Of a DNA stretch of 64,000 bases, positions 23,490-42,053 are shown in pieces. The notes below the pieces were generated by a model. The model saw only the letters and a program-made list of their open reading frames with translations, ran no database searches and was not told the DNA's origin. Numbering within the stretch: the stretch's first letter is position 1; the number at the start of each line of letters is the position of its first letter. Source of the stretch: Planctomycetota bacterium (GTDB lineage: Bacteria; Planctomycetota; DG-23; JAZDKG01); the NCBI GenBank assembly GCA_043803205.1, contig JAZDKG010000073.1, forward strand, positions 2,129 through 66,128, written 5' to 3'. The translations under genes were made by a program, and so were the position numbers.

Positions 23490-23532
23490 GAGCCCCCCCT
23501 GTTCATGACAGAAACGTCTTGCTCCGGCCATG

Positions 23533-23561
23533 TTGCGTCCGGCGGGAAGCCGGGGCATAAT
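23533..23561 (+). promoter_or_regulatory. Candidate promoter TTGCGT-N17-CATAAT for the large glycoside hydrolase gene
   Basis: ttgcgt 23533-23538, a 17-nt spacer, then cataat 23556-23561. It sits ~45 nt upstream of ATG 23605. Confidence 0.4.
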
Positions 23562-23604
23562 CCGAACGTCATCCCCTGAGGGTGTCTTTCCGGGAGGGTA
23601 TTGC

Positions 23605-26600: not shown

Positions 26601-27345
26601 CGAGGGGAAGTTCGACATCCCCATCCGGAAGCTGCCGGACGAGCCCGGACTGTACGCGCTGGCGGTCGAAGTGGAGCACGGGGGCGAGACGCGGGAGATC
26701 ACGCTGCGATTTCCACTTCTCGTTGCGCATGCGTTCGACGCTCCGCCGACGATCGACGGACGGCTGGATGAATGGCACGGAATGGCGCCGGCGCGAATCG
26801 ACACGGCGGAGCAGGCGAAGCTCTTCGGCACCGCGGATTGGCGGGGGCTCGAGGATTCGTCGGCGCGGGTGCGCGCCGGGTGGACGCTGGGAAAGCTGTA
26901 CCTCGCGGTCGAGGTGACGGACGACAAGCTCGTCCAGCGCAATCGGACCTACCTTGACGATTGCGTTGAACTTTTCTTCAATACGAACCTTGCGGACCGC
27001 ACGGACCGGAGGTACGGACCGAATGCGTACCAGGTGGTTTTGCCGCCCGTGATGGACGAGCGCTCGGAGAAGACGGTCGAGATCAACCCGACGGGTGGAG
27101 CGACTCTCACGGCGCAGAACGTGGAGTATGCGTCGCAGAAAACGGCGGAGGGGTACGCGGTGGAGGTGGGGATCGACGTGTCGGCGCTGGCGGACCTCGA
27201 GCTTACGGAGGGGACGCTCATCGGGTTCGACGTCGCCGTCGACGACTGCGACGACGGGATGCGCAAGGCACAGCTCATCTGGGCCGGCGACGAGGACGAT
27301 TGCCAGGACACCGGGGACTTCGGGTACCTGCTGCTGGCGCGTTGA
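23605..27345 (+). CDS. Large secreted multidomain glycoside hydrolase with carbohydrate-binding modules (CBM4/9-like N-terminal and CBM9-like C-terminal domains around a TIM-barrel GH core)
   Basis: Signal peptide MRRGILFLAAAVFLGAAGDLRA. Central TIM-barrel GH-like region (HYWGFFNEIGG, LHYFNAVG). C-terminal domain with DGRLDEW...DDCVELFF...GFDVAVDD, characteristic of CBM9-like / DOMON-like sugar-binding domains. Total 1246 aa. Confidence 0.7.
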   Translation: MRRGILFLAAAVFLGAAGDLRAEQRPGAVFEETFEAPFTDEVLIRIAPQMGDHRREGDRVNLLPPGWWPLNSQVGSGRLWSASAETRPGSKGKQSARVENVGGTPQTGLMYPGWGDGRLRLKKGERYRFTMWYRSNVPIILNAWNDGKMTDLRKQPFPEEFRPFRDLGADWAGNIFHEIIPPSAEWAKGSFLFTAPADYEREKVERSTIDIQLAAQREGWMVIDDVTIARTSEREKPGRASERQAPEEGERRTGNLLTNASFEAGLRGGWRVVEQRDFRAPVDSEIAYHGVRSVRLDLPCFEDRIHAPGGRLRNTVLSSLVRLAPGRTYTFSAYAKTSGPEGPNVKISVFGCEVPDSGEPIASARLASTGEWQRGEVSFEAPPMPHDSYFVSVDVWSVKPGSVWLDALQLEEGESAGEFQPGEAVAFGLSTTQEGNLFLTTEPFETTLLIANEGSEIRDFTYTVRIVNIRDEEIWSRRESVDALPAGVTERMVRPDKAFTGVFRMEVLDRDGRLGEEMIGGIVPPPRDDVALDESSMGCHISLEPALMRVTRRYGMRWIRLHDTLPNTRWEYVEIEKGRWVWDDDKMKVALDMGFGLLGTLHTYSYQEWGSRLWFYDAARKDTFFISPEGFEGYCFEAVNHYKDLIHYWGFFNEIGGATGSAADGVVDLLQRAQRAMRKADPEAKLTGCDFFPSHEQGFQEILKRGLLPLLDVCTLHYFNAVGPETIRRFVELGRSDGVERPVWVCEENSLGKPIRAWYRREKPYLVDSTVRRNADYGGQQIEAYQAAVDDLKMYVTERSCGVSRRFYYMNWPSRTAALTISYSDFEYDNAVGPLHVTQGVYAHLLDGTRFAETVDLGRSLRGHLFERGGETIACLWTAPGARHGRGFNAPAGKVRVLDFQGNELASAEGTAGLTMTFSEEPVFLVAEGLSAKALSEILRAGAQSDLSAEIAAAGGRCTVRLRVANHGSAEYQASARARALSGAWELGDAVALAAGPRSEGKFDIPIRKLPDEPGLYALAVEVEHGGETREITLRFPLLVAHAFDAPPTIDGRLDEWHGMAPARIDTAEQAKLFGTADWRGLEDSSARVRAGWTLGKLYLAVEVTDDKLVQRNRTYLDDCVELFFNTNLADRTDRRYGPNAYQVVLPPVMDERSEKTVEINPTGGATLTAQNVEYASQKTAEGYAVEVGIDVSALADLELTEGTLIGFDVAVDDCDDGMRKAQLIWAGDEDDCQDTGDFGYLLLAR

Positions 27346-27357
27346 TGGGGAGCCCCG

Positions 27358-28350
27358 TCAGTCCGCCGGCGGCGTCTCGTCCCCGGCGTTCTCCCCGGTC
27401 GCTTCCTTTCCCCGATAGAAGCTATGGCCCACGTATCGGACCCAGGCGGTGAAGGGGTCGTCAGTCCCGCTCGCGCGGGAGAGGGCGTTGGCGGCGATCC
27501 AGTGTTTGGAGTCCGCGTCGTCGGCGTAATGGAGGAGGAGCGCCTCGCGCGTCTTCGGGGGGATGGGAGAGCCCCATTCGGGGAGCCCTTGGTGGGAGAG
27601 AACCATGTGTTCGATGAGGAGCGCGAGCTCCTGCGGGAACCCTTCGATGCGGGCGATCCGCTCCGAGACCATGCGGATGCCCAGGATGATGTGTCCCAGC
27701 ATGCCGCCGGGGACGGTGTAGTTGAACTCGCGGACGGAGTCCAGCTCCTCGACTTTTCCGATGTCGTGCAGGATCGCGCCGGTGATGAGGAGGTCGCGGT
27801 CGGCGGCGTAGTGTTCGGCGAAGAAGTCGCAGACTTCCGCGACGGAGACGACGTGCTCGAGCAAGCCGCCGATGTAGGCGTGGTGGACATCGCGGGCGGC
27901 GACGGAGCGCTTGAAGGCCTCGCGGAAGCCCGCGTCGTCGAAGAAGGCGGCCAAGAGCTTCGCCAGCCACTCGTTTTCGATGGAGCCGATGAAGGCCTCG
28001 ATGGTCTGCCAGAGCTGCGCTACGTCCCTCGGGGTGTGGGGGAGGAGGTCGGCGAGGTCGAAGGGGTCGTCATCGCGGGCCTTGCGGAGCTGCTTCACGT
28101 TGAGCTGTCGCTCGCCTTGGAAGGTCTCGACGATCCCCTGCGCCTTGACGACGTCGCCCTTGCCGAACTGGTCGTTGAGCTCCTGGGCGTTGTCCCAGAC
28201 CTTGGCGTCGATCCGGCCGGAGGCGTCCTGGAGGTCAAGGGTGAGGTAGGCCTTCCCCGCGCGCGTGAGGCTGAGGGTCTTTTCGCGCACGAGGAAAAAA
28301 TCCACGACGACCTCGCCGACGGTGAGGTCTTGGATGCAACGGGCTCGCAT
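27358..28350 (-). CDS. YhaM-like HD-domain protein (OB-fold plus HD phosphohydrolase; 3'-5' exoribonuclease family)
   Basis: N-terminal OB-fold region (GEVVVDFFLVREKTLSLTRAGKAYLTLDLQDASGRIDAKVWD). HD motif (HVVSVAEV...ILHDIGK). The start was chosen at the MRARCIQDL ATG. The longer track ORF adds an implausible N-terminal extension. Confidence 0.7.
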   Translation of the reverse strand: MRARCIQDLTVGEVVVDFFLVREKTLSLTRAGKAYLTLDLQDASGRIDAKVWDNAQELNDQFGKGDVVKAQGIVETFQGERQLNVKQLRKARDDDPFDLADLLPHTPRDVAQLWQTIEAFIGSIENEWLAKLLAAFFDDAGFREAFKRSVAARDVHHAYIGGLLEHVVSVAEVCDFFAEHYAADRDLLITGAILHDIGKVEELDSVREFNYTVPGGMLGHIILGIRMVSERIARIEGFPQELALLIEHMVLSHQGLPEWGSPIPPKTREALLLHYADDADSKHWIAANALSRASGTDDPFTAWVRYVGHSFYRGKEATGENAGDETPPAD

Positions 28351-28498
28351 GATCACCTCGCTTCCGGGAAAGGGCAGGAGCTTCGCCGATCTTTCGACCG
28401 GGACCATTTTAGCCGGGGACGACTCGGGCGCAATCGCGGCTTCTCGCCGGCGGGCGAATCTGTACAATAGGATCCTCTTTGCGTTGGAGGATCGCGCG

Positions 28499-29557
28499 AT
28501 GCCGAAGGAGAGCATGACGGCGAGGGAGCGATGGGAAGCGGTGCTGGATCGGCGCAAGCCGGACCGTGTGCCAATGGACTACTGGGCTACGCCCGAGGCC
28601 GACGAGAAGCTGATGAGGCACCTCCGGGTGAACACGATCGAGGAGGCGCACGCCAAGCTTCACATCGATAGGCCCCTCACGGTGTCTCCGCGGTACGTCG
28701 GTCCGCCCCGTCCGCCGGGGACGAACCAGTGGGGGTGTCGGGTGCGACGGGTCCGTTACGAGACGGGGGTCTACGAGGAGATCGTCTCTCATCCGCTGGC
28801 GTCCTGCTCGTCGATCGAGGAGATCGACGCGAACTACCGGTGGCCGTCGACGGACTGGTACGACTACTCCCACCTCGCGGAGGAGATCCGGGGGCAGGAG
28901 CACCGTCCGGTCCAGGCCGGGGGGTCGGAGCCGTTTCTTGTCTACTGCGAGTTGCGGGGCCTGGAGCTGGGGATGATGGACCTGGTGACGGTGCCCGAGA
29001 TCGTCCGCCACTGCCTCGGAAAGCTCTTCGACTTCGCCTATGAGAACACTCGCCGGATCTATGAGGCGATCCCCGGGAGGGTGCTCATCTCGTACGTCGC
29101 GGAGGACATGGGGTCGCAGACGGACCTCCTTTTCTCGCCCGAGGCGATTCGTACCTTCTTCCTTCCCGGGATGAAGCGGATGAACGAGCTGGCGCATTCC
29201 GCGGGGGCGCGCGTCTTCTATCACAGCGACGGGGCGGTCCGGAAGATCGTGCCCGACATGATCGCGATCGGGATCGACGTCCTCAATCCCGTCCAGTGGC
29301 GCTGCGAAGGGATGGAGCGCCAGGCCCTCAAACGCGACTTCGGGGACAAGGTCATCTTCCACGGCGGCGTCGATAATCAGCACACGATCCCGTTCGGCAC
29401 GCAGGACGAGGTGCGCCGCGAGGTGCGAGAGAACATCCGAATCCTCGGCGCGGGGGGCGGATACATCCTCGCCCCGTGCCACAATATTCAGGCCGTCGGC
29501 CCCGCCGAGAACGTCGTCGCGATGTACGAAGAGGGGTACGCCTGCGGATGGACCTGA
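28499..29557 (+). CDS. Uroporphyrinogen decarboxylase (URO-D) family protein, MtaA-like (paralog 2)
   Basis: URO-D family blocks (YVAEDMGSQTDLLFSPEAIRTFFLPGMKRM, HSDGAVRKIVPDMIAIGIDVLNPVQ). RBS ggagg 7 nt before ATG 28499. Confidence 0.8.
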   Translation: MPKESMTARERWEAVLDRRKPDRVPMDYWATPEADEKLMRHLRVNTIEEAHAKLHIDRPLTVSPRYVGPPRPPGTNQWGCRVRRVRYETGVYEEIVSHPLASCSSIEEIDANYRWPSTDWYDYSHLAEEIRGQEHRPVQAGGSEPFLVYCELRGLELGMMDLVTVPEIVRHCLGKLFDFAYENTRRIYEAIPGRVLISYVAEDMGSQTDLLFSPEAIRTFFLPGMKRMNELAHSAGARVFYHSDGAVRKIVPDMIAIGIDVLNPVQWRCEGMERQALKRDFGDKVIFHGGVDNQHTIPFGTQDEVRREVRENIRILGAGGGYILAPCHNIQAVGPAENVVAMYEEGYACGWT

Positions 29558-29740: not shown

Positions 29741-31009
29741 GTGATGTTCATCCTTCTGCACTTGCCGATCATGGCGGCGCTGCTCGCCCTGTCGGCGCTC
29801 TTCTCGGGGTCCGAGACCGCGCTTTTCTCGCTGCGCGGCCCGGTCCAGGAGCAGATGCGCGGATCCACTAACCGGCTCGAGCGGCTGGCGGGGTACCTCC
29901 TCGACCATCGCAGGGAACTTCTCATCACGATCCTGTTGGGCAACATGATCGTGAATATCCTCTTCTATTCGATGAGCGTGCTGGTGTCCCTCGAGCTTTA
30001 CCGGCTGGGGCATCGGACGCTCGCGCCGCTGGCGGCGCTTGCGGGGCTCGCGTGCGTGGTGGTTTGCGGGGAGGTGAGCCCGAAGGCGATCGCGGTGCAT
30101 TTTCCGCGGCGCATCGCGCTGCTGGCGGCCTGGCCGATCTATCTCATCTACGTGGGGCTCACGCCCATCCGGGGCGTCCTCGGGAAGATCGTTGACGCGA
30201 TCACGCATCTCGCTTGGCGACGGAGGGTCCTCCTCGAGCACCTGACGGACGAGGAGCTGCGGGGGGTGCTCGACCTGGGACACCGCCAGGGCGTGCTGCG
30301 GGCGGACCAGATGTCGATGATGGCGGAGGTGATGGACCTCGCGGACACCGAGGTGCGGGAGATCATGACGGCTCGGGTGGAGGTGCCGCTCTTCGACATC
30401 GAGGGCGTCCGGGAGGAGCTCGTGGCGCTCATCCGGCGGGAGCGGTGCAAGTTCGTCCTGGCGTACCGGAGCTACCGGGACAATTCCCTTGGGATCCTGC
30501 GGGCGAAGGAGGCGCTGCTCTTTCCGGAGAAGCCGCTGTCGGAGCTCGTGCGGAAGGTCCCGTACGTGCCGGAGACGCGTCCGCTGGACGCGCTCCTGCG
30601 GGAGCTGCGGGAGGGCAAGCAGTCCGTGGCGATCGTGATCGACGAGCACGGGGGGACTGAGGGGGTTATCACGGTGGAGCGCCTCGTCGAGCGGATCGTG
30701 GGGACGATTCGACACGAGTATGAGAGGAGCGAGGAGGACGCGGTGCAGCTTTCGCCCGACTCCTGGAGCCTTGCGGGGCGTCTTCCGGCGCGCGATCTCG
30801 AGGACGTGCTCAGGGCGCCGGTGGAGGAAGGGGACTTCTCGACGCTCGCGGGGCTGGTGCTTTATCTCCTCGGGCGCGTGCCCGAGACGGGGGACCAGGT
30901 GCGCTTGGGGGATTTCCGGCTCACGGTGACGCGGATGAGCGGACGCCGGATCGAGCGCGTGGTTGCCGAAAGGCTCCCCCGGTCGGCGGACGGGGAGGAG
31001 CCGGAATAA
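29741..31009 (+). CDS. CNNM/HlyC-family transporter (DUF21 membrane domain, CBS pair, CorC_HlyC domain)
   Basis: Four N-terminal helices with GSETALFS (DUF21), a CBS pair, and a C-terminal transporter-associated domain (GDFRLTVTRMSGRRIERV). Confidence 0.85.
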   Translation: MMFILLHLPIMAALLALSALFSGSETALFSLRGPVQEQMRGSTNRLERLAGYLLDHRRELLITILLGNMIVNILFYSMSVLVSLELYRLGHRTLAPLAALAGLACVVVCGEVSPKAIAVHFPRRIALLAAWPIYLIYVGLTPIRGVLGKIVDAITHLAWRRRVLLEHLTDEELRGVLDLGHRQGVLRADQMSMMAEVMDLADTEVREIMTARVEVPLFDIEGVREELVALIRRERCKFVLAYRSYRDNSLGILRAKEALLFPEKPLSELVRKVPYVPETRPLDALLRELREGKQSVAIVIDEHGGTEGVITVERLVERIVGTIRHEYERSEEDAVQLSPDSWSLAGRLPARDLEDVLRAPVEEGDFSTLAGLVLYLLGRVPETGDQVRLGDFRLTVTRMSGRRIERVVAERLPRSADGEEPE

Positions 31010-31984
31010 ATGGGAATCGGCATCTTCCTACTGCTCGTGGCGCTGTTGGCTCTCGCCGGTTTCTACGGAGGCGTGGAGACGGGGGCGTATACGCTGAGCC
31101 GGCTGCGCCTCACGATGCTCGTCTCAAGGGAGGACTCGCGCGCCAGGGCCGTGCATCGGATCCTCGAGAAGCCGTCCGACGTGATCGCGATGACCCTCAT
31201 CGGGCAGAACCTGTGCATCTTCCTGGCGACGGCGCTTCTGACGGAGACGCTCAGGGCGCGCCTGCCGTCGCACACGGAGCTCTACGCGACGCTGATCCTG
31301 GCGCCGGTGATCTATGTGTTCTGCGACGCGGCCCCGAAGAACCTGTTCGCGCGCGGCGCGGACGTCCTTTTTTACCGGCTGATCGCCCCGATCCGCGTAT
31401 CGGGGGTGCTGTTCTATCCGGCGGTGGTGATGGTGCGGTTTATCAGCCGGTTCTGGCAGGCGGCGCTCGGGGGAAAGCCCGAGAGCGCGAACGCCTTCTT
31501 CCTCACGCCGGCGTACCTCACCTATCTCCTGTCGGAGAGCAAGAGCATCGGGCACCTTTCCGACTACCAGACGACCCTCGCCTTCAACATCATGAAGCTT
31601 TCGAAGCTCTCGGTCGACCATGCGATGATCCCCCTGGACAGGGTTGCGTCGTTCCCGAGGACGCTCGCCCCGTCGGAGGTCCTGACGGCGGCCAGGGGCT
31701 TCCCCTTCACGCGGTTCCCGGTCTACGAGGGGGAGCCCGCGAACATCGTGGGGGTCGTGAACGTGATCGATCTCGCCCTTGGGGCTGACGCGGGCGGCGG
31801 GCCCGACGCGCACGTCCGCCCCCTGGTCGCGGTGCCGCACACGGCGACCGTGCTGGACGTGCTCCAGCTCATGCGGGAGCGCTCGGCCCTGCTGGCGGCC
31901 GTCACGCGCGACGGACGACCGATGGGGATCGTAACCTTCAAAGATCTCGTGGAGGAGATCGCCGGGGAGCTCGGCGAGTGGTGA
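31010..31984 (+). CDS. DUF21-CBS domain membrane protein (CNNM paralog lacking the CorC_HlyC domain)
   Basis: The start overlaps the upstream stop (TAAATG). DUF21-type helices (GGVETGAYTLSRLRL) plus a CBS pair. At 324 aa it is too short to carry a CorC domain. Confidence 0.75.
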   Translation: MGIGIFLLLVALLALAGFYGGVETGAYTLSRLRLTMLVSREDSRARAVHRILEKPSDVIAMTLIGQNLCIFLATALLTETLRARLPSHTELYATLILAPVIYVFCDAAPKNLFARGADVLFYRLIAPIRVSGVLFYPAVVMVRFISRFWQAALGGKPESANAFFLTPAYLTYLLSESKSIGHLSDYQTTLAFNIMKLSKLSVDHAMIPLDRVASFPRTLAPSEVLTAARGFPFTRFPVYEGEPANIVGVVNVIDLALGADAGGGPDAHVRPLVAVPHTATVLDVLQLMRERSALLAAVTRDGRPMGIVTFKDLVEEIAGELGEW

Positions 31985-32003: not shown

Positions 32004-32744
32004 TCACCGTTCCCAGTCGTCCTCGGGCCAGCCCTCGCCGACGTTGTAGGAGACCGTCGCGGGCACGCCCCCTCGGACGCGGATTCCCCCCAGAACGGGA
32101 TCGAAGCGGACGCGCAGCTTCTTCCACGCGTCGATGGTGAGCTGCTCGCGCTCGAGGACGACGTAGCCGCGCCGACGCACCCATCCGCCATAGCGGTTCT
32201 CGAAGTCCCACACCTCCACGCGCCAGAAGACCACCGGCTCGCTCGTGACGAGACTCGTCTGTTCCGTCATGAGCTTCTCGATCAGCAGGCGCGCCCACTG
32301 GTGGTGGCCGGCGAGGGCGAGGATGCGGCGCTTGTTCTCCCAGATATTCATCGCGCCCGCGTATTCCCGGATCGCCTCCTCATCCTTCTGCGTAAGGGGG
32401 GGCGCGGCCTCGCCGGGGAGCTCCACCTCGCCGAGTTCGTTCACGAGCTTGAGATTGGCGCCCTCGATCTTCCCGCCGTCGGTCTCGATCAGGAGGTCGT
32501 AGAAGCCGTCGGCGAGCCCGCGGACGATCCACGCGCCTTCGTCACGGACGGCGGGGTACCTGGGCTTGGGCCAGCCGCCGGGGGAGCGGTCGATGGCGCA
32601 CACGGAACGGACGACCTGCGCCGGCTCGATGCTCACGCGGATCTCTCCGGCGCTCGCGCAGAGGGCAAGCCAGAGGATCACGGCGGCGGCGCCCGCACTC
32701 GTGCGGAGGCTCTTACTCTTCCGGCGCGATATTCCCTTCGCCAT
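32004..32744 (-). CDS. Hypothetical secreted protein
   Basis: An N-terminal signal-like segment (AAAVILWLALCASAGE). No recognisable family. It is the last gene of the long minus-strand run. Confidence 0.45.
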   Translation of the reverse strand: MAKGISRRKSKSLRTSAGAAAVILWLALCASAGEIRVSIEPAQVVRSVCAIDRSPGGWPKPRYPAVRDEGAWIVRGLADGFYDLLIETDGGKIEGANLKLVNELGEVELPGEAAPPLTQKDEEAIREYAGAMNIWENKRRILALAGHHQWARLLIEKLMTEQTSLVTSEPVVFWRVEVWDFENRYGGWVRRRGYVVLEREQLTIDAWKKLRVRFDPVLGGIRVRGGVPATVSYNVGEGWPEDDWER

Positions 32745-33540
32745 TTGTGATCACCGTGTTATCTGGGCGCGGGGCGAGCGAGGAGAGATCGCCGTCCTTC
32801 TCGCTGCGCGCGGTCATGGACGCGTCGAGGCCCGAGGCCTTCGCCAGGCTCAGGCGCGCCTCGTCGAAGCGTCCGAGCTTCGCCAGGGCGCAAGCGCGGT
32901 CGTACCACGCCTTGGCGACGTCCGGGCGTATCGCCAGCGCCTGATCGAGCGTCTCGAGGGCCTCCCCGGCGAGGTCCAGATGGACGAGGATCGCGGCCAG
33001 GTTCACCAGGGCCGCGACGTTTCCGTGTTCGAGGTGGACGGCGCGCCGGGCGTACTCCAGGCCCTCTTCGTGACGGCCCAGCTTCGCTAGTACCGCGGCC
33101 GCGTTGGAGAAAGACGCCGCATGCTCCGGGTCGATCCCGGCAGCCCGCCCGAAGTCCTCGAGGGCCTCCTCCATCTTTCCGAGGCGCACGTTCGCCAGCC
33201 CCCGGTTGAAGTACGCGGAGAATCGCCCCGGGTCGCGAGCGATCGCCTGCTCGTAGGCCTCGACGGCCTTGTCGTACATTGCTATCTCCAGCCATGCGTC
33301 TCCGAGTTCCGAGAAGGCCCCGGCGTTGAGGTTGATCCCCAACTTCTCCAGAAGGAGGCGCGCGTGGATCGTGGTCGGGTCCACGCGGAAGTGGGTGATC
33401 CCGCGATCCCGCCTCAACCGGGATCCCGCGGCCGCGGGACCGCGAGACCGGACGCTGTGGGTGACCGCCGTCTTCCCGCGCCGCTGGGGAAGCCCCAGGA
33501 ACTCGCGCAACAGCCTTTCGATCGCGGTCACTTCACCCAC
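32713..33540 (-). CDS. TPR repeat protein (start uncertain)
   Basis: At least five TPR units (AWLEIAMYDKAVEAYEQAIARDP, AYFNRGLANVRLGKMEEALEDFGRA, ...). The track ORF start at 33654 overlaps the upstream cytochrome gene. In-frame GTG codons at 33540, 33531 and 33384 are candidate starts. Confidence 0.55.
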   Translation of the reverse strand: MGEVTAIERLLREFLGLPQRRGKTAVTHSVRSRGPAAAGSRLRRDRGITHFRVDPTTIHARLLLEKLGINLNAGAFSELGDAWLEIAMYDKAVEAYEQAIARDPGRFSAYFNRGLANVRLGKMEEALEDFGRAAGIDPEHAASFSNAAAVLAKLGRHEEGLEYARRAVHLEHGNVAALVNLAAILVHLDLAGEALETLDQALAIRPDVAKAWYDRACALAKLGRFDEARLSLAKASGLDASMTARSEKDGDLSSLAPRPDNTVITNGEGNIAPEE

Positions 33541-33551
33541 GGCGTTCCCGA

Positions 33552-34898
33552 TCACTTGCTCAGACGAAGGACGGCATTGCGGTGATCGATCTTCGGATAG
33601 TACGTGTCGAACTCGAACTTGGGGCTGTTCTCCGGGTCGTGGCAGGTGCGGCACTTCGATTCGTCGGGACGGGAGTAGGGGGCCAGCACGTTACGGAGGT
33701 GCCGGCTCCCGGGGCCGTGACACGCCTCGCACGCGACGTTCGCCAGATCAGGCGTGAGGGCGCGACTGCGGAAGCCTCCCTCATTCTCGAGACCGACGGT
33801 GTGACAGACGACGCACTCGGGATCCCGGTCGGCGCCTTCTTTCTCGAGGGAGGCCAGCGCCTCCTCATGTTTCACCGTGCGCCACTTGCGGAACTGCGGG
33901 AGGTGACAGCGGGCGCAGCCGCTCAAGCCCAGGTAGCGACGGTCCCCGATCGCCATCCGGGGAAAGCGATCGATCAGCCCCTCCTCCGAGACCTGGAGAC
34001 GGTAGTCGGCGAGAAGCTCCGCGACGGACTTGTCCTCCGGCATGTCCCCGGAGAGGAACGTCGGGGTGTAGCGCGTGCCGAGGACCGCCCCCGAGGGATC
34101 GAAGTCCACGTCGAGGCGCGCGACCCATTTCCCATAGAGACCGGTTCCCACGACGGCGGTCGCGCCGACCTTCTCCTCGGCCTCGGGGGGTTTCTCCTCG
34201 AGGTAGCCTCTCGCGGCGACGTCGATCCCCGGGGCCTCGCGCGCGATGCGCTTCGCCTCTTCGGCGCCGGCGTGGCAGAGGAGCACGACGAGGTCGGCGC
34301 GGGGACGCAGTTCCGCGACGAGTTCGCGCGCCGTCGCCACAGGGTCCAAGAGCTCCAGGTCGGGCGCCATGCTGGAGAGTTCGATGCGGAAGGCTTCCCC
34401 CAGGATGGCGAACACGGCCACGCGCCGGCCGCTCGGTAGCTCGATCACGATCGAGCGCTCGAAGGGAAAGCCGCCGTCCCGGCGCCTTGCGTTCGACAGG
34501 ATCAGGGGGACGGGGGAGCCGACGGCCTGGGCGTTGAGGGTGGACAAACCCAGGGCGAAGTCCCGGAAGCCCACGGCGCAGGCGTTGTATCCCATCTCGC
34601 CGAGGGCCAGGAGCGTGTACTCGTACTTGATCTCCTGCTGACGGCCCCCCTCCAGGACGAGTCCCCCGTTGTCGAGGAGGACGATCTCCCCGCCCGTGTT
34701 CCGGCGCAGTTCTCGCACGAAGGTCGAGCGACGGGGGAGGCCGCCCACCATGTCCTCCGTGCACCCGCAGGGGGCGAGGCGCCCCATCTGTTCGCCCGTG
34801 AAAAGGATCGTGAGGCGGGAGGGCTCATCCGCCGCGAGGGTTGCGACGCTCGAGACGAGGAGCACCAGATAAAGGACCAGAGGGCGGGCGCGCTTCAA
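33552..34898 (-). CDS. Fusion protein: N-terminal degenerate 5'-nucleotidase/metallophosphatase-like domain plus C-terminal tetraheme c-type cytochrome domain
   Basis: A TTG start at 34898 follows the RBS gggaggg and gives the signal peptide (M)KRARPLVLYLVLLVSSVATLAA. The N-terminal ~300 aa resembles the 5'-nucleotidase family (LLDNGGLVLEGG, VLLCHAGAEEAKRIAREAPGIDVA) but lacks the GNHE and GGH metal ligands. The C-terminal ~130 aa carries four CxxCH motifs (CARCH, CVVCH, CEACH, CRTCH). The upstream part of the track ORF is high-GC artefact overlapping the DUF1573 gene. Confidence 0.65.
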   Translation of the reverse strand: MKRARPLVLYLVLLVSSVATLAADEPSRLTILFTGEQMGRLAPCGCTEDMVGGLPRRSTFVRELRRNTGGEIVLLDNGGLVLEGGRQQEIKYEYTLLALGEMGYNACAVGFRDFALGLSTLNAQAVGSPVPLILSNARRRDGGFPFERSIVIELPSGRRVAVFAILGEAFRIELSSMAPDLELLDPVATARELVAELRPRADLVVLLCHAGAEEAKRIAREAPGIDVAARGYLEEKPPEAEEKVGATAVVGTGLYGKWVARLDVDFDPSGAVLGTRYTPTFLSGDMPEDKSVAELLADYRLQVSEEGLIDRFPRMAIGDRRYLGLSGCARCHLPQFRKWRTVKHEEALASLEKEGADRDPECVVCHTVGLENEGGFRSRALTPDLANVACEACHGPGSRHLRNVLAPYSRPDESKCRTCHDPENSPKFEFDTYYPKIDHRNAVLRLSK

Positions 34899-34915
34899 TC
34901 GTCCCTCCCGGGGCG

Positions 34916-36088
34916 CTACTCTTCGGTTGGCTCCTGCTCTTGCTCCGGCGGGCCGACGGGGGCAAGCGCCTCTCCCCGCACCCGCCAGGACACCGGCAGC
35001 GTGATGATCGGCTTTTCCCTTCCCTCCCTGTAGATTCGGATGACCGCGCGATGTCTTCCGGACCGACCTTCCCCCTTGGCGGTAAGGAACACGCGCGTTT
35101 CCTTCTCGGTCTTCTCGATCTGGAACTCCAGGGCCGGATCGGTCGCGTCCGCGCGGCTGACGGTGAAGTCCGGGATGTCGCTGGTGACGACGACCGCGCG
35201 CTTGCCCGAGGTCTTCCCCACCCGGACGCTTCCGAGGTAGACCGACCCCATGGGCTTGTAGGAGAAGTCGCCGACGACGGATCCCACGATGGGGAGGGCG
35301 AAGCGCGCACGGGGGGGATAGTTCGTCGTCACGACCAGTCTCTCGTCGATCTCCCCGACCTGGGCCTCGTCGGTGAGCTTGACGGTGATGCGGTAGCCCG
35401 GGTAGGTCTTCTCCGTCTCCTTTTCTTCTCCCTTCTCTCCTTCCTTTTCCTTGACGCGGACCGTGATCTGGGCGGGCTCGAAGGAGACGGCGAAGGCGGT
35501 GTTCGTGGTGGCGACCTCCTGAAGCACGAGGCCGAAGGCCCGGAGGTCGTAGACTTCGATCCCTGCGGAGGCGCCGGTGTCGAGCTTCACGCCGTCGAAC
35601 ACGACGCGTTCGGGGCGCACGCCGATCGTGCTCACCACGCGTCCATTCACCTGGAGCTGAAGCCCGTTCGGGTAGCGGGGATCGTTGCTGTAAACGATGA
35701 CGTGCTTGTTCTCGGCTTCCCCCTCGATGATGCTTGTCGTGACGCCGACCTCCATCACGGCCCTGTCCCCCTTGGAGAGGTCGGTGACGCTGAGGCGGGG
35801 GGTGAGGCAGCCGCAGTCCGCGACGGGAGTGCCCAGCTTGAGAATGCCGGCGCCGTCGTTGCGCAGGACGAAGTGCACCTGTTTGAGATCCCCCTTCTCC
35901 GCCTCTCCGAAGTTGACGACGAGGCCCCCCTCGACCACGAGGGCCGGGACGTAGAGGTCCTCGGGGAGAGGAAGCTGTTTGGTCGCGGGGGCGGGCTTGG
36001 ACTGGGCTTCGGCGGGGGGCTCCTCCGCGAAGAGGGTCGTCGATGCGACGAACACGGCGATCCATGCGAGTCTGGGTAGCAGGGACAT
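34916..36088 (-). CDS. DUF1573 domain secreted protein
   Basis: Signal peptide MSLLPRLAWIAVFVASTTLFA. DUF1573 hallmark (HFVLRNDGAGILKLGTPVADCGCLTP). RBS ggaaagga before ATG 36088. Confidence 0.7.
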   Translation of the reverse strand: MSLLPRLAWIAVFVASTTLFAEEPPAEAQSKPAPATKQLPLPEDLYVPALVVEGGLVVNFGEAEKGDLKQVHFVLRNDGAGILKLGTPVADCGCLTPRLSVTDLSKGDRAVMEVGVTTSIIEGEAENKHVIVYSNDPRYPNGLQLQVNGRVVSTIGVRPERVVFDGVKLDTGASAGIEVYDLRAFGLVLQEVATTNTAFAVSFEPAQITVRVKEKEGEKGEEKETEKTYPGYRITVKLTDEAQVGEIDERLVVTTNYPPRARFALPIVGSVVGDFSYKPMGSVYLGSVRVGKTSGKRAVVVTSDIPDFTVSRADATDPALEFQIEKTEKETRVFLTAKGEGRSGRHRAVIRIYREGREKPIITLPVSWRVRGEALAPVGPPEQEQEPTEE

Positions 36089-36107
36089 CGCGGTTTTTCC
36101 TTTCCGA

Positions 36108-37517
36108 TCAGCCCTTCCGCTTCGTGATGAGGAAGACGACCACGGCGACGGCCGAGAGGACAACGAGGATGCCGATTCGCTTCACGAGCTTCGCATGGGC
36201 CTCGCGCGCCATCTCCTTCAGGGGCTCGACCTCAGCCTGCGCGGAGGCCCCTTGCGGCGTGGGAGGGGCGGCCTCATCGGGGACGAGCTCCTCCGCGTTG
36301 TACAGGATGGGACACAGCTTGATCTCGAGCTCCCCCCGGTTGTGCGCCGCCAAGAGCGGAAGGTACCGCTGGAGGGCGTTGTCGGCGAGCTCGGTATACG
36401 GGTAGTCCTTCCAGATGAGCTGGTTGGCGCAGAAGGCGTATTCGTACTGTTTCTGGCTGTCGCAGAAGCGGGCGAAGTATTCAACGGCCTTTCCGATCTC
36501 GATGTCCTTGGGGTACTTCTCGATCCACTTGGGAAGCTCCTCGTAGAGTTTTTCGAAGCGTCCCATGGCCACCTCCATCTCGACGGTGTGCCGCAGGGCC
36601 TGCGTGAGGAGGTGCCACCTCGGGTTTTGCGCCACGAGGTCATCGATGATCCCGAGAGCCTTGAGATAGGAGGCGATGGTGAGGTTCACGTCGTGGAGGA
36701 TGAAGTAGAAGCCCCGTTTCTTGTAGAGAAGGGCGAGCTGGTAGCGCAGGCTCAGGCGCTTGTCGGGGTCCTGGAAGCGCTCCTGGTTTTCCTCGGCGAG
36801 GTCGATCGCCTTGGCTATGAAGACGGGACGGGCGATCACATCCTCGCCCCTGCGCCTTCCCTCGGCGTAGCGGGAGTAGGCGTGCAGAAGGGCGATGAGA
36901 CCCAGGTACTCCTCCTCGTCGTCACGCGCGTCGGCGAGGTACACGCGCCAAAGGTCCACGAGGTCATCGGGCTGGATGGTCTCATCCTTCGGGTATTCGC
37001 GGTCCAGCAGCACGTAGTCCATGCGGGTGGCCTCGTAGCGGGCGCGACGCCCGAGCTCGGTCCCCTCGGAGCGCTCGTCGTCGGCGACGGCCTGATACTG
37101 CTCGATCGCCGCCTGAAGCCGATGTTGGACGGTCATCTTGTCGGCGGCGAGATACCCCGCCACGAGGTCCTCCGGGAGCTTCTCCACCTCGGCGAGGAGG
37201 CGCAGCTCCCGCTGGATCTCCCCCGACATGGGATTGTAAGGGTCGCTCTCGAGGAGCCTGCGGGCGTAGCGGCGGGCCTCCTCGAAGCGCTTGAGGAACA
37301 TCATGGCCTTGACGATCTGGAGGCCGATCTCTCCGCGTCTCTCGAACGTGGGGTAGATCGCGAGCAACCCCGTGGCGTGCCGGACGAAGGTATCGTAATC
37401 GCCGACCTCCAGTGCCGACATCGCCTCGCTCACCTTCTGGGAGACGGTCGCCCCGGCGGCGCTTCGTGTCAGGAGCAGGACCGCCGCGAGCGCAAAAATC
37501 CCCAAGCCCTGTTTCAT
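36108..37517 (-). CDS. Secreted TPR-like helical-repeat protein with C-terminal transmembrane anchor
   Basis: Signal peptide MKQGLGIFALAAVLLLTRSAAG. Helical repeat content. C-terminal hydrophobic anchor IGILVVLSAVAVVVFLITKRKG. Confidence 0.5.
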   Translation of the reverse strand: MKQGLGIFALAAVLLLTRSAAGATVSQKVSEAMSALEVGDYDTFVRHATGLLAIYPTFERRGEIGLQIVKAMMFLKRFEEARRYARRLLESDPYNPMSGEIQRELRLLAEVEKLPEDLVAGYLAADKMTVQHRLQAAIEQYQAVADDERSEGTELGRRARYEATRMDYVLLDREYPKDETIQPDDLVDLWRVYLADARDDEEEYLGLIALLHAYSRYAEGRRRGEDVIARPVFIAKAIDLAEENQERFQDPDKRLSLRYQLALLYKKRGFYFILHDVNLTIASYLKALGIIDDLVAQNPRWHLLTQALRHTVEMEVAMGRFEKLYEELPKWIEKYPKDIEIGKAVEYFARFCDSQKQYEYAFCANQLIWKDYPYTELADNALQRYLPLLAAHNRGELEIKLCPILYNAEELVPDEAAPPTPQGASAQAEVEPLKEMAREAHAKLVKRIGILVVLSAVAVVVFLITKRKG

Positions 37518-37656
37518 GCAACGCCTTTCCGGAACAGCTCCGTCGTCCTGCCGGAGTCTCAGGGGGTCGGCCGGCGTCCAATTATAGCGGGGGTCACCCC
37601 GCGCTCAAGCGCGTCCGCGACCGGCGCGGACGCGCGCGGGCTCTTCGGCGACGATG

Positions 37657-38211: not shown

Positions 38212-38712
38212 TTACCCGCCGGACGGCGCCTGAGGCGAGACGAACCACACCAGCGACACCCCCTCGTCGGGGTAGTCGAGGAGGACGGCGGTCGAGCCGT
38301 CGAAGACTTGCACTTCCTCGACGGGGATTAAGCCGTTCGCGTTCGCGGTCATCGCGAGGTTGATCGGGGGCGTCTCGTTGATGCTTCGGGGCCATAGGAC
38401 GATCGCCGCCACGACGGCCGCGGCGGCGGCGAGAACGGCGAGGCGGGCCGTCATCCGCCAGGCGCGTCCAGGGACTTCGACGGCGACCGGGGGTTTTTCG
38501 TGCAGGCGCTTCCAGACGGCCTGCCACTCGCCCTCGCCGGTCTGGCGCTGGTAAGCGGCCCGAACGCCTTCGGTCACGACGCGGAATTCCATCGTCGCCT
38601 TCGAGCATGCGGCGCACCCGTCGATGTGAGCGCGGACCTCCTTGGACTGGGCGGGCGCAAGCTCGCCGTCCAGGTAGGCGCTCAGGATCTCCCCGTCAGG
38701 ACACGCGTTCAT
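38212..38712 (-). CDS. Anti-sigma factor, zf-HC2 zinc-finger type, single TM helix
   Basis: HIDGCAACSK motif. TM helix LAVLAAAAAVVAAIVLW. The start overlaps the ECF sigma stop (ATGA). Confidence 0.65.
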   Translation of the reverse strand: MNACPDGEILSAYLDGELAPAQSKEVRAHIDGCAACSKATMEFRVVTEGVRAAYQRQTGEGEWQAVWKRLHEKPPVAVEVPGRAWRMTARLAVLAAAAAVVAAIVLWPRSINETPPINLAMTANANGLIPVEEVQVFDGSTAVLLDYPDEGVSLVWFVSPQAPSGG

Positions 38713-39296
38713 GACTCCTCCTCGAAGTAGCCTTTGCCGCGGAGCGCTTCGCGCAGGGCCTGCCGCGCGTAGAAGAGGCGGCTCATCACCGTCCCCACAG
38801 GCACCCCCAGAGACTGCGCGGTCTGGGCATAGCTCAGGCCCGCCTGGGTGACGAGCGTGAGCACGACGCGCTGCGGCTCGGGAAGCCCGCGCATGGCCTC
38901 TTCGACGAGGCGCGCCAACTCGCGGCCCTGCGCCTCGTCGTCGGGGGAGCGCTCATTACGGGATCGCGGCGGAACCATCGTTTCGAGCTCCTCCGAGGCC
39001 TCGAACATCTCCTTCCCGCGCCGGGCGCGAAGGGCGTCGAGCCCAGCGTTCGTGACGATCCGGCGGAACCAGGTGCCGAGGCTCGAACGGCCCTCGAAGC
39101 GCCCGATGCTCCGGAAGGCCTTGAGGAACGCCTCTTGGACCACGTCCATCGCGTCCGCGTCCCTTCCGACGATGCCCATGGCGATCGCGTATGCCAACCC
39201 TCGAAAGCGTTCAAAGAACTCGCGGCAGGCCTCTTCGTCCCCTGCGCGAACCCTTCGCACGAGGGCTTTTTCGTCCTTCGGCCTCGCAGACTCCAT
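38709..39296 (-). CDS. ECF (group 4) RNA polymerase sigma factor
   Basis: Sigma-70 region 2 (VVQEAFLKAFRSIGRFEGRSSLGTWFRRIVTNAGLD) and a region 4 HTH (LSYAQTAQSLGVPVGTVMSRLFYARQAL). Confidence 0.85.
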   Translation of the reverse strand: MESARPKDEKALVRRVRAGDEEACREFFERFRGLAYAIAMGIVGRDADAMDVVQEAFLKAFRSIGRFEGRSSLGTWFRRIVTNAGLDALRARRGKEMFEASEELETMVPPRSRNERSPDDEAQGRELARLVEEAMRGLPEPQRVVLTLVTQAGLSYAQTAQSLGVPVGTVMSRLFYARQALREALRGKGYFEEES

Positions 39297-40743: not shown

Positions 40744-40925
40744 AGGACGCTCCTTCCCGTTTCCGCGTGCGCACGCATTATAGACGAGGGCCTTCCGGCG
40801 CACAAGGAAGGGCGCCGGTGCGCCCGGGGCTTGGGCGCGGGACCGCAGACCTTGACGGCAGCGGCGCCCGTGGGCCAAAATGCCGTGCCGCACGGGCAAC
40901 GTCGTATCTGGGGAAAGGAACGATC

Positions 40926-42053
40926 TTGACTGCGAAGCAGCGCATTTTAGCGGCGCTCCGGTCGGCTGTGCCCGACGCGGTCCCGGTCACGCTCGGGACG
41001 AGCGAGATGGTGCCCGTCAGGAAGTCGGGCCTCGATTACATTCAGTTCTTCTGGCGCGAGAAGCGCAGCCTCGTGCGGGCCCGCTGCGACACGGAGAAAG
41101 GCTTCGGAGGGGACGTGTTTCTGCATTCGGGCCCCGGCCCGTCCGCGGGCGATCCGGAGGTGACCACCGAAACGCTGAAGGACACGCTCGAAGAGGTCAT
41201 CTACCGGGAGACGATCCACACGCGCAGGGGGGGGCTCTCGAGCGTGCTGCGGATCACGCCCACGGAGTCGATCGCGACGCTTGAGGGCGCGGTGAAGGAC
41301 GCGACGGCCGACCGGGAGAAGGTCCTCGATCTCCTAGCCGATCCCGAGGGCAAGGACTACTCGGACTACGTCTCCGACCACGCGTACGTCGGGGACGCGG
41401 GGCACTGCGGGCTGTGGCTCTCGACCCCGATCGACTGGTGGTCGGGGTTGCGCGGGAGCCCCGAGAAGGCGATCTACGATCTTGCGGACCACCCGGAACT
41501 CATGAAGGACCTCTTCGCCGCATACACGAGGTACGCCGCCGCGCTCATCGCCGATTTCCTCGCGCGTTACCGGGCGATCGCAGACTCGATCGGTCTGGGA
41601 GGAAGCACGACGTCCATGTCGGTTATCTCGCCGGCGCTGCTTCGCGAGCACGCGGTCGGTTTCGTGCGGGCGATCAAGGGGGAGGCGGCGCGCTGCGGCG
41701 TCCCGGTCCAGTACCACATGTGCGGACGCTCACGGGAGGCGATCCCGATCCTCGTGGAGGCCGGGGTGGACGGCATGGACGCCCTCGAATGCCCCCCGAC
41801 GGGGAACGTGGACCTCGCCGAGGTGAAGAGGCTTTTCGGATCGCGCATCTCGCTGCGGGGGAACGTGAACTCGATCACGGTGATGCTGCGCGGGTCGCCC
41901 CGCGACGTCGAGCGGGACGTCCTGCGCTGCATGGAGGCCGCCAAGAAGGGGGGAGGGTATGTCCTGGGAGTGGGGGACCAGGCGCCGTACCATACCCCCG
42001 ATGAGAACCTCGCCGCATTCGTGGAAGCCGGTCGGAGATACGGGAAGTACTAG
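40926..42053 (+). CDS. Uroporphyrinogen decarboxylase (URO-D) family protein (paralog 3)
   Basis: URO-D family C-terminal blocks (HMCGRSREAIPILVEAGVDGMDALE, GGGYVLGVGDQAPYHTP). A TTG start at 40926 follows ggaaagga. The track ORF from 40767 adds an Arg/Gly-rich artefactual N-terminus. Confidence 0.7.
   Translation: MTAKQRILAALRSAVPDAVPVTLGTSEMVPVRKSGLDYIQFFWREKRSLVRARCDTEKGFGGDVFLHSGPGPSAGDPEVTTETLKDTLEEVIYRETIHTRRGGLSSVLRITPTESIATLEGAVKDATADREKVLDLLADPEGKDYSDYVSDHAYVGDAGHCGLWLSTPIDWWSGLRGSPEKAIYDLADHPELMKDLFAAYTRYAAALIADFLARYRAIADSIGLGGSTTSMSVISPALLREHAVGFVRAIKGEAARCGVPVQYHMCGRSREAIPILVEAGVDGMDALECPPTGNVDLAEVKRLFGSRISLRGNVNSITVMLRGSPRDVERDVLRCMEAAKKGGGYVLGVGDQAPYHTPDENLAAFVEAGRRYGKY

Follow-up and report, generated by a model that had tools for sequence, protein, structure and literature searches.

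A sub-threshold Planctomycetota member of the UshA-like (seleno)protein family joins a metal-stripped 5'-nucleotidase fold, with a conserved Cys/Sec pair, to a tetraheme c554-type domain

Results

Gene structure

This work concerns one gene in a 64,000-nucleotide stretch of DNA from a Planctomycetota bacterium (assembly GCA_043803205.1, contig JAZDKG010000073.1), hereafter the window. On translation, positions 33552-34898 of the minus strand comprise 448 codons plus a stop, and the product joins a 5'-nucleotidase-like N-terminal domain that has lost its metal ligands to a C-terminal tetraheme domain of the cytochrome c554 type. Judged from conservation across the family, including a cysteine position occupied by selenocysteine (Sec) in some relatives, the N-terminal domain most likely serves not as a passive binding module but as a redox-active Cys/Sec site that is wired to the four hemes. 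The gene carries the following features, with the basis of each in brackets.

33552-34898, minus: gene for the UshA-like(PCGC)-tetraheme c554 fusion protein, 448 aa (stop codon at 33552-33554; product identical to NCBI MFH0963416.1; NF041198 match of 246.4 bits)
34903-34909, minus: Shine-Dalgarno-like gggaggg, four bases before the TTG start (read from the sequence)
34833-34898, minus: signal peptide, approximately residues 1-22, no lipobox, cleavage site approximate (inspection; homologues have a signal peptide or lipobox at the same place)
33969-34823, minus: degenerate 5'-nucleotidase/metallophosphoesterase-fold domain, residues ~26-310 (phmmer, structural model and Foldseek; NF041198 positions 5-271, 133.9 bits)
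34761-34772, minus: P43-C44-G45-C46 motif, proposed redox-active site, with the C46 codon (TGC) at the UGA/Sec position of relatives (sequence and family alignments)
33981-34031, minus: linker helix, residues 290-306 (AlphaFold2 model)
33555-33941, minus: c554-type tetraheme domain, residues 320-448, with the invariant extra histidines H344, H400 and H439 (Pfam, PDB alignment and family alignment)
33903-33917, minus: heme motif 1, CARCH, residues 328-332 (invariant, 178/178)
33801-33815, minus: heme motif 2, CVVCH, residues 362-366, possibly penta-coordinate by analogy with c554 (invariant, 178/178)
33717-33731, minus: heme motif 3, CEACH, residues 390-394 (invariant, 178/178)
33639-33653, minus: heme motif 4, CRTCH, residues 416-420 (invariant, 178/178)

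Translation starts at a TTG codon (34898-34896). Both this start and the gggaggg in front of it, picked out by a first-pass annotation made from the letters alone, are present, and the NCBI entry MFH0963416.1 ('MAG: multiheme c-type cytochrome [Planctomycetota bacterium]', 448 aa; MAG, metagenome-assembled genome) is an identical protein annotated from the same start. The 17-nt gap between the TAG stop of the upstream gene and the TTG contains no other start codon. An 837-aa open reading frame in the same frame (33552-36065) was rejected as a spurious upstream extension, which overlaps the real DUF1573 gene in another frame. On inspection, the N-terminus reads KRAR, a hydrophobic run and then ATLA/AD, resembling a signal peptide without a lipobox, in keeping with the secretion that the annotation had proposed. 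Lipobox-like N-termini (LASC, NHGC, LAAGC) occur at the related loci L011, L030, L041, L060 and L085, so the family includes lipoprotein forms.

Family assignment and distribution

The best NCBIfam match was NF041198, 'UshA-like (seleno)protein' (UshA_like_PCGU), at 246.4 bits (E 5.2e-73), below the curated equivalog cut-off of 275. This profile of 519 positions spans both halves of the protein: tested alone, the N-terminal half scored 133.9 bits (positions 5-271) and the C-terminal half 112.6 bits (positions 401-518), and the c554 part of relatives matches positions ~348-519. Because NF041198 covers both domains, the fusion is intrinsic to the curated family. The domain combination, reported as unrecognised in the first-pass annotation, is therefore covered by a single curated model, whereas the accompanying remark that this is not a characterised protein is literally true, the family being experimentally uncharacterised. 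Relatives that score above the cut-off include the Sec protein of locus L006, translated through its UGA (344.7 bits), P0047 (329.4 bits) and P0035 (376 bits). By profile comparison, the window protein is a divergent, sub-threshold Cys-form relative of a known, uncharacterised family, and in itself an ordinary member.

Separate profile searches of the two halves had been proposed as a check in the same annotation. The C-terminal half matched PF13435 (Cytochrome_C554) at 54.2 bits against a gathering threshold of 20.8 (E 2.8e-14), while the N-terminal half matched no Pfam catalytic-domain model and was recognised by NF041198. With the whole protein as query, PF00149 (Metallophos) and PF02872 (5_nucleotid_C) gave no match at E ≤ 1, and Pfam recognises the heme half only. 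The protein is not a misread SoxB- or NrfA-type enzyme with intact catalytic residues: the SoxB model TIGR04486, with a cut-off of 550, scored 54.6 bits, and the ligands that an intact dimanganese site would need are lacking; the protein had no NrfA match, and the NrfB model PRK11659 scored 11.5 bits against a cut-off of 184 (E 0.18).

The family spans many phyla. A profile search of 1.84 billion cluster representatives (50% identity) returned 33,556 matches at E ≤ 1e-3 and 4,820 at E ≤ 1e-30; among the best 150, almost every match extends over both domains of the profile. Planctomycetota hosts comprise Pirellulales, Planctomycetaceae, Phycisphaerae, MAGs labelled Scalindua and Kuenenia, and the cultured Kolteria novifilia Pan216 (L025). 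Other hosts belong to Armatimonadota, Acidobacteriota, Nitrospinota, Nitrospirota, Myxococcota, Eisenbacteria, Fibrobacterota, Poribacteria and further groups.

In Zhang & Gladyshev (2008, PMC2398784), the family stands as 'COG0737, UshA-like' with the motif CxU, the GOS metagenomes contributing 76 Sec forms and 92 Cys homologues; it recurs in later selenoproteome reviews (PMC9312934, PMC13188914), so that the surveys listing it run from 2008 to 2026. Across the literature searched, this family and DUF1573/OS_HP2 alike appear as catalogue entries for predicted selenoproteins only, with no functional study found, and the heme domain goes unmentioned in those passages of these papers that treat the UshA-like family.

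The N-terminal domain retains the 5'-nucleotidase fold without its metal site

In phmmer searches of PDB sequences, residues ~25-304 aligned to snake-venom 5'-nucleotidase, CD73 and UshA (E 3e-9 to 2e-6, the snake-venom and CD73 matches being those at E 3e-9). An AlphaFold2 model built from a 22-sequence family alignment had a mean pLDDT of 87.7 and a pTM of 0.84, the latter indicating a defined two-domain arrangement in the model. When this model was compared with the PDB using Foldseek, the best fold matches were all 5'-nucleotidases (E 8.5e-23, TMq ~0.55, ~345 aligned columns). Sequence and structure thus agree on the fold, an α/β sandwich, that the first-pass annotation had assigned to this half, and structure prediction, another of its proposed checks, yielded a confident model.

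The loss of metal ligands described in that annotation is also evident. DxH has become E36-Q-M38, GD has become G78-G79, GNHE has become G110-F-R-D113 and GGH has become R-G-Y (Y232), which places E36/M38, G79, F111/R112 and Y232 at ligand positions. At least five canonical metal/catalytic positions are replaced in the window protein, and the former metal-ligand positions are all variable across 178 relatives. H209 (motif IV) alone is kept among the metal/catalytic positions, and an acidic residue also stays at position 113. By comparison, G52, G53 and R56 are strongly conserved; they form the GGxxR motif common to true 5'-nucleotidases, from which their conservation appears to be inherited. 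Conservation is at a lower level for Q87, K91 and Y299 in the family alignments, where conserved residues of this domain are few overall. A residual phosphoesterase, 5'-nucleotidase or SoxB-like hydrolase activity would draw on the fold, on the sequence homology to 5'-nucleotidases and SoxB, and on the retained H209 and acidic residue 113; given the substituted and family-wide variable metal/catalytic positions and the absence of the substrate-binding 5_nucleotid_C domain, we regard it as extremely improbable.

A PCGC motif in the N-terminal domain includes a selenocysteine position in many relatives

The first-pass annotation did not mention the motif P43-C44-G45-C46, whose residues are the only family-specific invariants of the N-terminal domain in alignments of 22 and 178 relatives: C44 is present in 170 of 173 relatives and C46 in 172 of 173. 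The motif lies in the loop after the first metal-ligand strand, six to eight residues past the lost His ligand, and nowhere else in the modelled domain is confidence as low as in this CGC loop (pLDDT 71). Recognition of the pair as the sole family-specific invariant of this domain appears to be new relative to the literature searched.

One homologue, P0025, is seemingly truncated at its N-terminus; in its locus, L006, the in-frame reading is SPCG-TGA-QKYPRGG, preceded by a signal peptide. When GTDB species were scanned with one genome each, at least 394 relatives were identified, and the 80 loci kept, together with L006, gave a set of 81. At 22 of the 81 loci, which come from other genomes and metagenomes, the C46 codon is an in-frame TGA (L006, L011, L012, L014, L016-L019, L023, L026, L027, L029-L031, L041, L054, L060, L065, L075, L080, L084 and L085), and each of these has an in-frame signal peptide and first β-strand upstream and four CxxCH motifs downstream. 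Sec forms occur in Eisenbacteria, Fibrobacteraceae, Krumholzibacteriia, Blastocatellia, Myxococcales, Deferrisomatales and other groups; all Planctomycetota loci in the set are Cys forms, and the window protein itself has Cys (TGC), not Sec, at position 46. A conserved GC-rich hairpin lies 23-40 nt past the UGA, overlapping the GGLARR codons, with compensatory changes in three of five consensus pairs. It is likely a bacterial selenocysteine insertion sequence (SECIS) element, which supports the Sec assignment, short of proof.

To our knowledge, insertion of Sec carries a high cost, and the residue is essentially confined to redox-active sites. Selenoproteome survey work likewise places most selenoprotein families among the redox proteins (PMC2398784). 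The replacement of C46 by Sec in relatives is our strongest argument that the N-terminal domain is catalytic, and it bears directly on the view taken in the first-pass annotation, namely that the degenerate phosphatase domain has no catalytic role and serves to bind a ligand or partner, as an attachment to a plain electron-carrier cytochrome. That view has on its side the lost dimetal ligands and the lack of any Pfam catalytic-domain match in the N-terminal half. The only family-specific invariants of the domain, however, are a Cys pair of which one member is replaced by Sec in 22 independent loci, a signature of a redox-active site, and a passive binding role now seems very improbable.

The C-terminal domain is of the cytochrome c554 type

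The four CxxCH motifs that the first-pass annotation had located at the C-terminus (residues 328-332, 362-366, 390-394 and 416-420) are invariant in all 178 relatives. Its description of them as cytochrome c3/c554-like holds for c554 and not for c3: PF13435 matched at E 2.8e-14, whereas the c3-type model PF14537 reached E 0.15 and was rejected. Residues 320-399 also align to cytochrome c554 of Nitrosomonas europaea (PDB 1bvb, E 1e-8 to 1e-9). Outside the heme motifs, three further histidines are conserved (H344 in 178/178, H400 in 175/178 and H439 in 169/169 sequences), of which H344 aligns with a c554 histidine, while the alignment of 178 relatives contains no conserved Met or Lys in the heme domain. 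Three distal histidines for four hemes suggest that one heme has an open or non-His site; by analogy with the c554 structure, this would be heme 2 (C362-H366). In c554, the sulfite reductase MccA and octaheme tetrathionate reductase (OTR), a penta-coordinate heme sits in the c554-type module, and catalysis in this group occurs at such hemes (PMC9250108).

A heme of this kind frames the main rival to a thiol-redox function. The CGC or CGU loop, positioned over the open c554 heme, could cleave or form S-S, S-Se or S-O bonds of small sulfur or selenium compounds such as tetrathionate, thiosulfate, polysulfide, sulfite or selenite, in the manner of OTR and MccA, which have the equivalent heme, and of SoxAX/TsdA, with their Cys-ligated hemes. 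The count of three invariant non-motif histidines for four hemes, the missing conserved Met or Lys and the catalytic penta-coordinate hemes of the c554-type modules cited above are all consistent with such chemistry. The N-terminal domain is, in addition, distantly related to SoxB (E 5.6e-15), and Sec forms are recorded in the octaheme tetrathionate-reductase family as well (PMC13188914). On the other side, the neighbourhoods inspected contained no sulfur- or selenium-metabolism genes. The family is moreover common in Planctomycetota, Armatimonadota and Acidobacteriota, which we take to be mainly heterotrophs. We consider a small-molecule sulfur or selenium reaction unlikely, and the partner gene described next bears on it further.

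A DUF1573 protein with a CxC motif is encoded next to the cytochrome and is fused to it in some relatives

One further gene belongs with the cytochrome gene:

34916-36163, minus: DUF1573/OS_HP2-type Ig-like partner gene, likely start ATG at 36088, CGC motif at 35807-35815 (PF07610, synteny and fusions)

This gene lies directly upstream of the cytochrome gene and encodes a multi-domain Ig-like (HYDIN/ASH-type) protein of ~400 aa, which matches PF07610 at 44.5 bits against a threshold of 26.1 (E 1.6e-11) and scores 40.7 bits on NF041425, 'OS_HP2 family (seleno)protein', against a cut-off of 100. Searching the PDB with the partner gave spurious repeat-protein matches only. A homologue of the partner profile is present at 39 of 87 loci and, in 37 of these, lies immediately upstream on the same strand; independently, BLAST clustering of neighbours recovered the partner at 32 loci, always upstream and on the same strand. 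The pair is kept down to 26-29% cytochrome identity. Within the CxC motif of the partner, which reads DCGCL in the window, the first Cys is conserved in 35 of 35 sequences and the second in 33 of 35. DUF1573/OS_HP2 is itself listed as a selenoprotein family with the motif UGC (PMC9312934).

The two families are also joined in natural proteins. Fusions of DUF1573, UshA-like and c554 domains were found in P0047 (772 aa), P0058, P0114 and the Armatimonadota protein HIE53188.1 (NCBI), and P0047 passes both curated cut-offs (329.4 bits on NF041198; 101.1 bits against 100 on NF041425). Two metagenomic proteins of ~1200 aa, P0035 and P0079, each contain two UshA-like domains, of which the first has PCEC/PCDC and the second has CGC and is joined to a terminal c554 module; a DsbA-like thioredoxin domain, with CIHC in P0079, separates the two. 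In P0033, a partial NCBI protein from a Planctomycetota MAG, a redoxin/AhpC-TSA domain is fused to repeated c554 modules, which places a second thiol-redox domain on the same heme module. Relative to the literature searched, this linking of two catalogued selenoprotein families by adjacency and fusion appears to be new. In the window, the CxC of the DUF1573 protein is likely a partner or substrate of the cytochrome. The association has its limits: the partner is adjacent in none of the 22 Sec-form loci, with one copy 1.1 kb away at L054, and many Cys-form loci among the 87 also lack an adjacent partner. The existence of many lineages with the cytochrome and without the DUF1573 partner suits a reaction on small sulfur or selenium compounds, whereas the fusions to DUF1573 and to DsbA-like domains speak for protein thiols over small molecules.

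The paired CxC motifs admit another function, in which those of the cytochrome and of DUF1573 bind soft metals or metalloids (Cu, Hg, As, Se or Te species), with reduction or oxidation of the captured ion at the hemes. In its favour, CxC and CxU are good soft-metal ligands, and survey work that lists both families also lists several Sec-containing metal-handling proteins, such as MerT-like, ZntA-like and YHS-domain proteins (PMC9312934). Against it, the loci examined contain no linked metal-resistance or transport genes, and the fused thioredoxin-fold domains (DsbA-like and redoxin) favour thiol chemistry; we judge metal handling improbable.

Wider gene context

The remaining genes of the cluster are the following.

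36108-37517, minus: TPR-like gene, 469 aa, upstream of the pair (syntenic in close relatives only)
32713-33654, minus: TPR-repeat gene directly downstream, true start probably at or after 33555, with GTG candidates at 33555, 33540 and 33531 (sequence; syntenic in close relatives only)
38212-39296, minus: ECF sigma factor (38709-39296) and zf-HC2 anti-sigma factor (38212-38712), first in the string of genes on this strand (synteny; kept in L001 and L002)

The string runs, on one strand, from the extracytoplasmic function (ECF) sigma factor through the anti-sigma factor, a 178-aa gene, the TPR-like gene, DUF1573 and the cytochrome to the TPR gene, an order that L001 and L002 share. Synteny of the sigma factor, anti-sigma factor and TPR genes is limited to these two close relatives. 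With the sigma/anti-sigma pair at its head, the cluster may be under envelope- or redox-stress control. A single sigma-70-like match (TTGAGC-16-TATAAT, 10/12) lies upstream of the TPR-like gene at 37581-37608 on the minus strand; it is weak, with 0.6 expected by chance, and terminator counts in a scan for operon boundaries were at chance level.

Neighbour clustering defined no conserved pathway context beyond the DUF1573 partner, and the wider window holds housekeeping genes. By BLAST clustering, the other neighbours are lineage-restricted: a Wzy_C-like gene (13 loci) and GT4 (9 loci) lie upstream in Planctomycetota, and LptD (9 Sec-form loci) lies upstream in Fibrobacteres and Eisenbacteria, with HU and Maf also recorded.

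Several further observations were made in the window. Two paralogous plus-strand genes (28265-29557 and 40767-42053) encode proteins that match only the C-terminal half of the uroporphyrinogen decarboxylase (URO-D) model, and in L001 and L002, too, the cluster has a URO-D-family gene in its vicinity. Tandem CNNM/CBS(/CorC) paralogues occupy 29741-31984 on the plus strand, and genes of this type border the cluster in L001, L002 and L089 as well. A 1271-aa protein encoded at 23530-27345 on the plus strand carries CBM4_9 and CBM9 carbohydrate-binding modules and no recognised catalytic domain. GC skew is +0.08 to +0.28 over the first ~30 kb (1-30000) and near zero over 30001-64000, a change that falls roughly where a stretch of mostly plus-strand genes gives way to one of mostly minus-strand genes.

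Discussion

Proposed mechanism and significance

On balance, and with moderate confidence, we read the window protein as a periplasmic heme-coupled thiol/selenol oxidoreductase with the CxC of DUF1573 as its likely partner or substrate. The 5'-nucleotidase scaffold, devoid of its two-metal centre, would hold the Cys pair in the loop past the first metal-ligand strand, where CGC (CGU in relatives) would cycle between dithiol and disulfide, or selenylsulfide, in two-electron chemistry. In true 5'-nucleotidases, a long linker helix separates the nucleotide-binding C-terminal domain from the active-site cleft that it faces. Here the c554-type module takes the place of that domain with the helix kept, and it plausibly faces the CGC loop. 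The four hemes would then link the Cys/Sec site to a redox partner in the periplasm, passing electrons singly, and in Planctomycetota, the window included, exchange would probably take place with the CxC of the DUF1573/OS_HP2 protein. As to direction, we lean towards thiol oxidation, with electrons leaving via the hemes: disulfides of the CxC type are rather oxidising, and the lineages of most Cys-form hosts are largely aerobic.

A bolder extension is that DUF1573(CxC) makes up, with the UshA-like(CGC/CGU)-tetraheme cytochrome, a previously unrecognised, quinone-independent periplasmic thiol-redox system, a bacterial counterpart of the Mia40-Erv1-cytochrome c relay, in which electrons from protein or carrier thiols pass directly to c-type hemes and the Cys/Sec loop lies over, or ligates, the open c554 heme. 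We regard this full scheme as speculative and rather unlikely. Were the loop to ligate the open heme, the Sec forms would contain a selenolate-heme site, for which we know of no precedent.

The family unites a metal-stripped metallophosphatase fold, a redox pair of Cys/Sec type and a wire of four hemes, which is an unusual combination. Catalogues have carried it as a predicted selenoprotein since 2008, with no function proposed. If thiol-to-heme coupling is confirmed, it would constitute a new route from periplasmic thiol/selenol chemistry to respiratory electron carriers. The Cys form occurs in cultivable Planctomycetota, such as Kolteria novifilia Pan216, which would offer a tractable entry point.

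Comparison with known systems

The window protein shares with the NF041198 family the two-domain architecture, the P-C-G-[U/C] motif, the four CxxCH motifs and the signal peptide; it differs in having Cys for Sec, in its sub-threshold score and in belonging to a Planctomycetota-type clade with a DUF1573 partner gene. That partner, in turn, resembles DUF1573 proteins in passing PF07610 and in its CxC, yet it scores below threshold on NF041425 and is multi-domain and not a single domain.

With the 5'-nucleotidases and UDP-sugar hydrolases (Escherichia coli UshA, human CD73 and the snake-venom 5'-nucleotidase; PF00149 and PF02872), the protein has in common the fold, the long linker helix and the GGxxR after the first loop (Foldseek E 1e-22, TMq ~0.55). 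The snake-venom enzyme has a Cys-containing loop whose first Cys aligns with C46. The differences lie in the lost dimetal ligands, the missing 5_nucleotid_C domain, the silent Pfam models and the replacement of the C-terminal domain by hemes.

Cytochrome c554 of N. europaea (PDB 1BVB/1FT5; PF13435) has four CxxCH motifs in the same order and three distal histidines for four hemes. The window protein is nonetheless not its orthologue (NF043010, 44 bits against a cut-off of 400): N. europaea c554 has 211 aa, whereas the module in the window is more compact (~130 aa), is joined to the Cys/Sec domain and stands outside a hydroxylamine-oxidoreductase context. OTR and MccA have Cys residues near their penta-coordinate heme. 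These two enzymes share with the window protein the c554-type module, which is N-terminal in them and whose penta-coordinate heme is their catalytic site (PMC9250108). Their sequence match to the window protein is weak (TIGR04315, E 0.044, whole protein), and the window protein has four hemes only, with its Cys/Sec pair on a separate 5'-nucleotidase-fold domain.

A functional analogy for the proposed path from DUF1573(CxC) through CGC to the hemes is the Mia40 (CPC)-Erv1-cytochrome c relay of mitochondria, in which a CxC carrier passes on electrons that end in a c-type heme. The likeness is one of function and not of homology: the relay proposed for the window has no flavin, and its thiol site and hemes are carried on one polypeptide.

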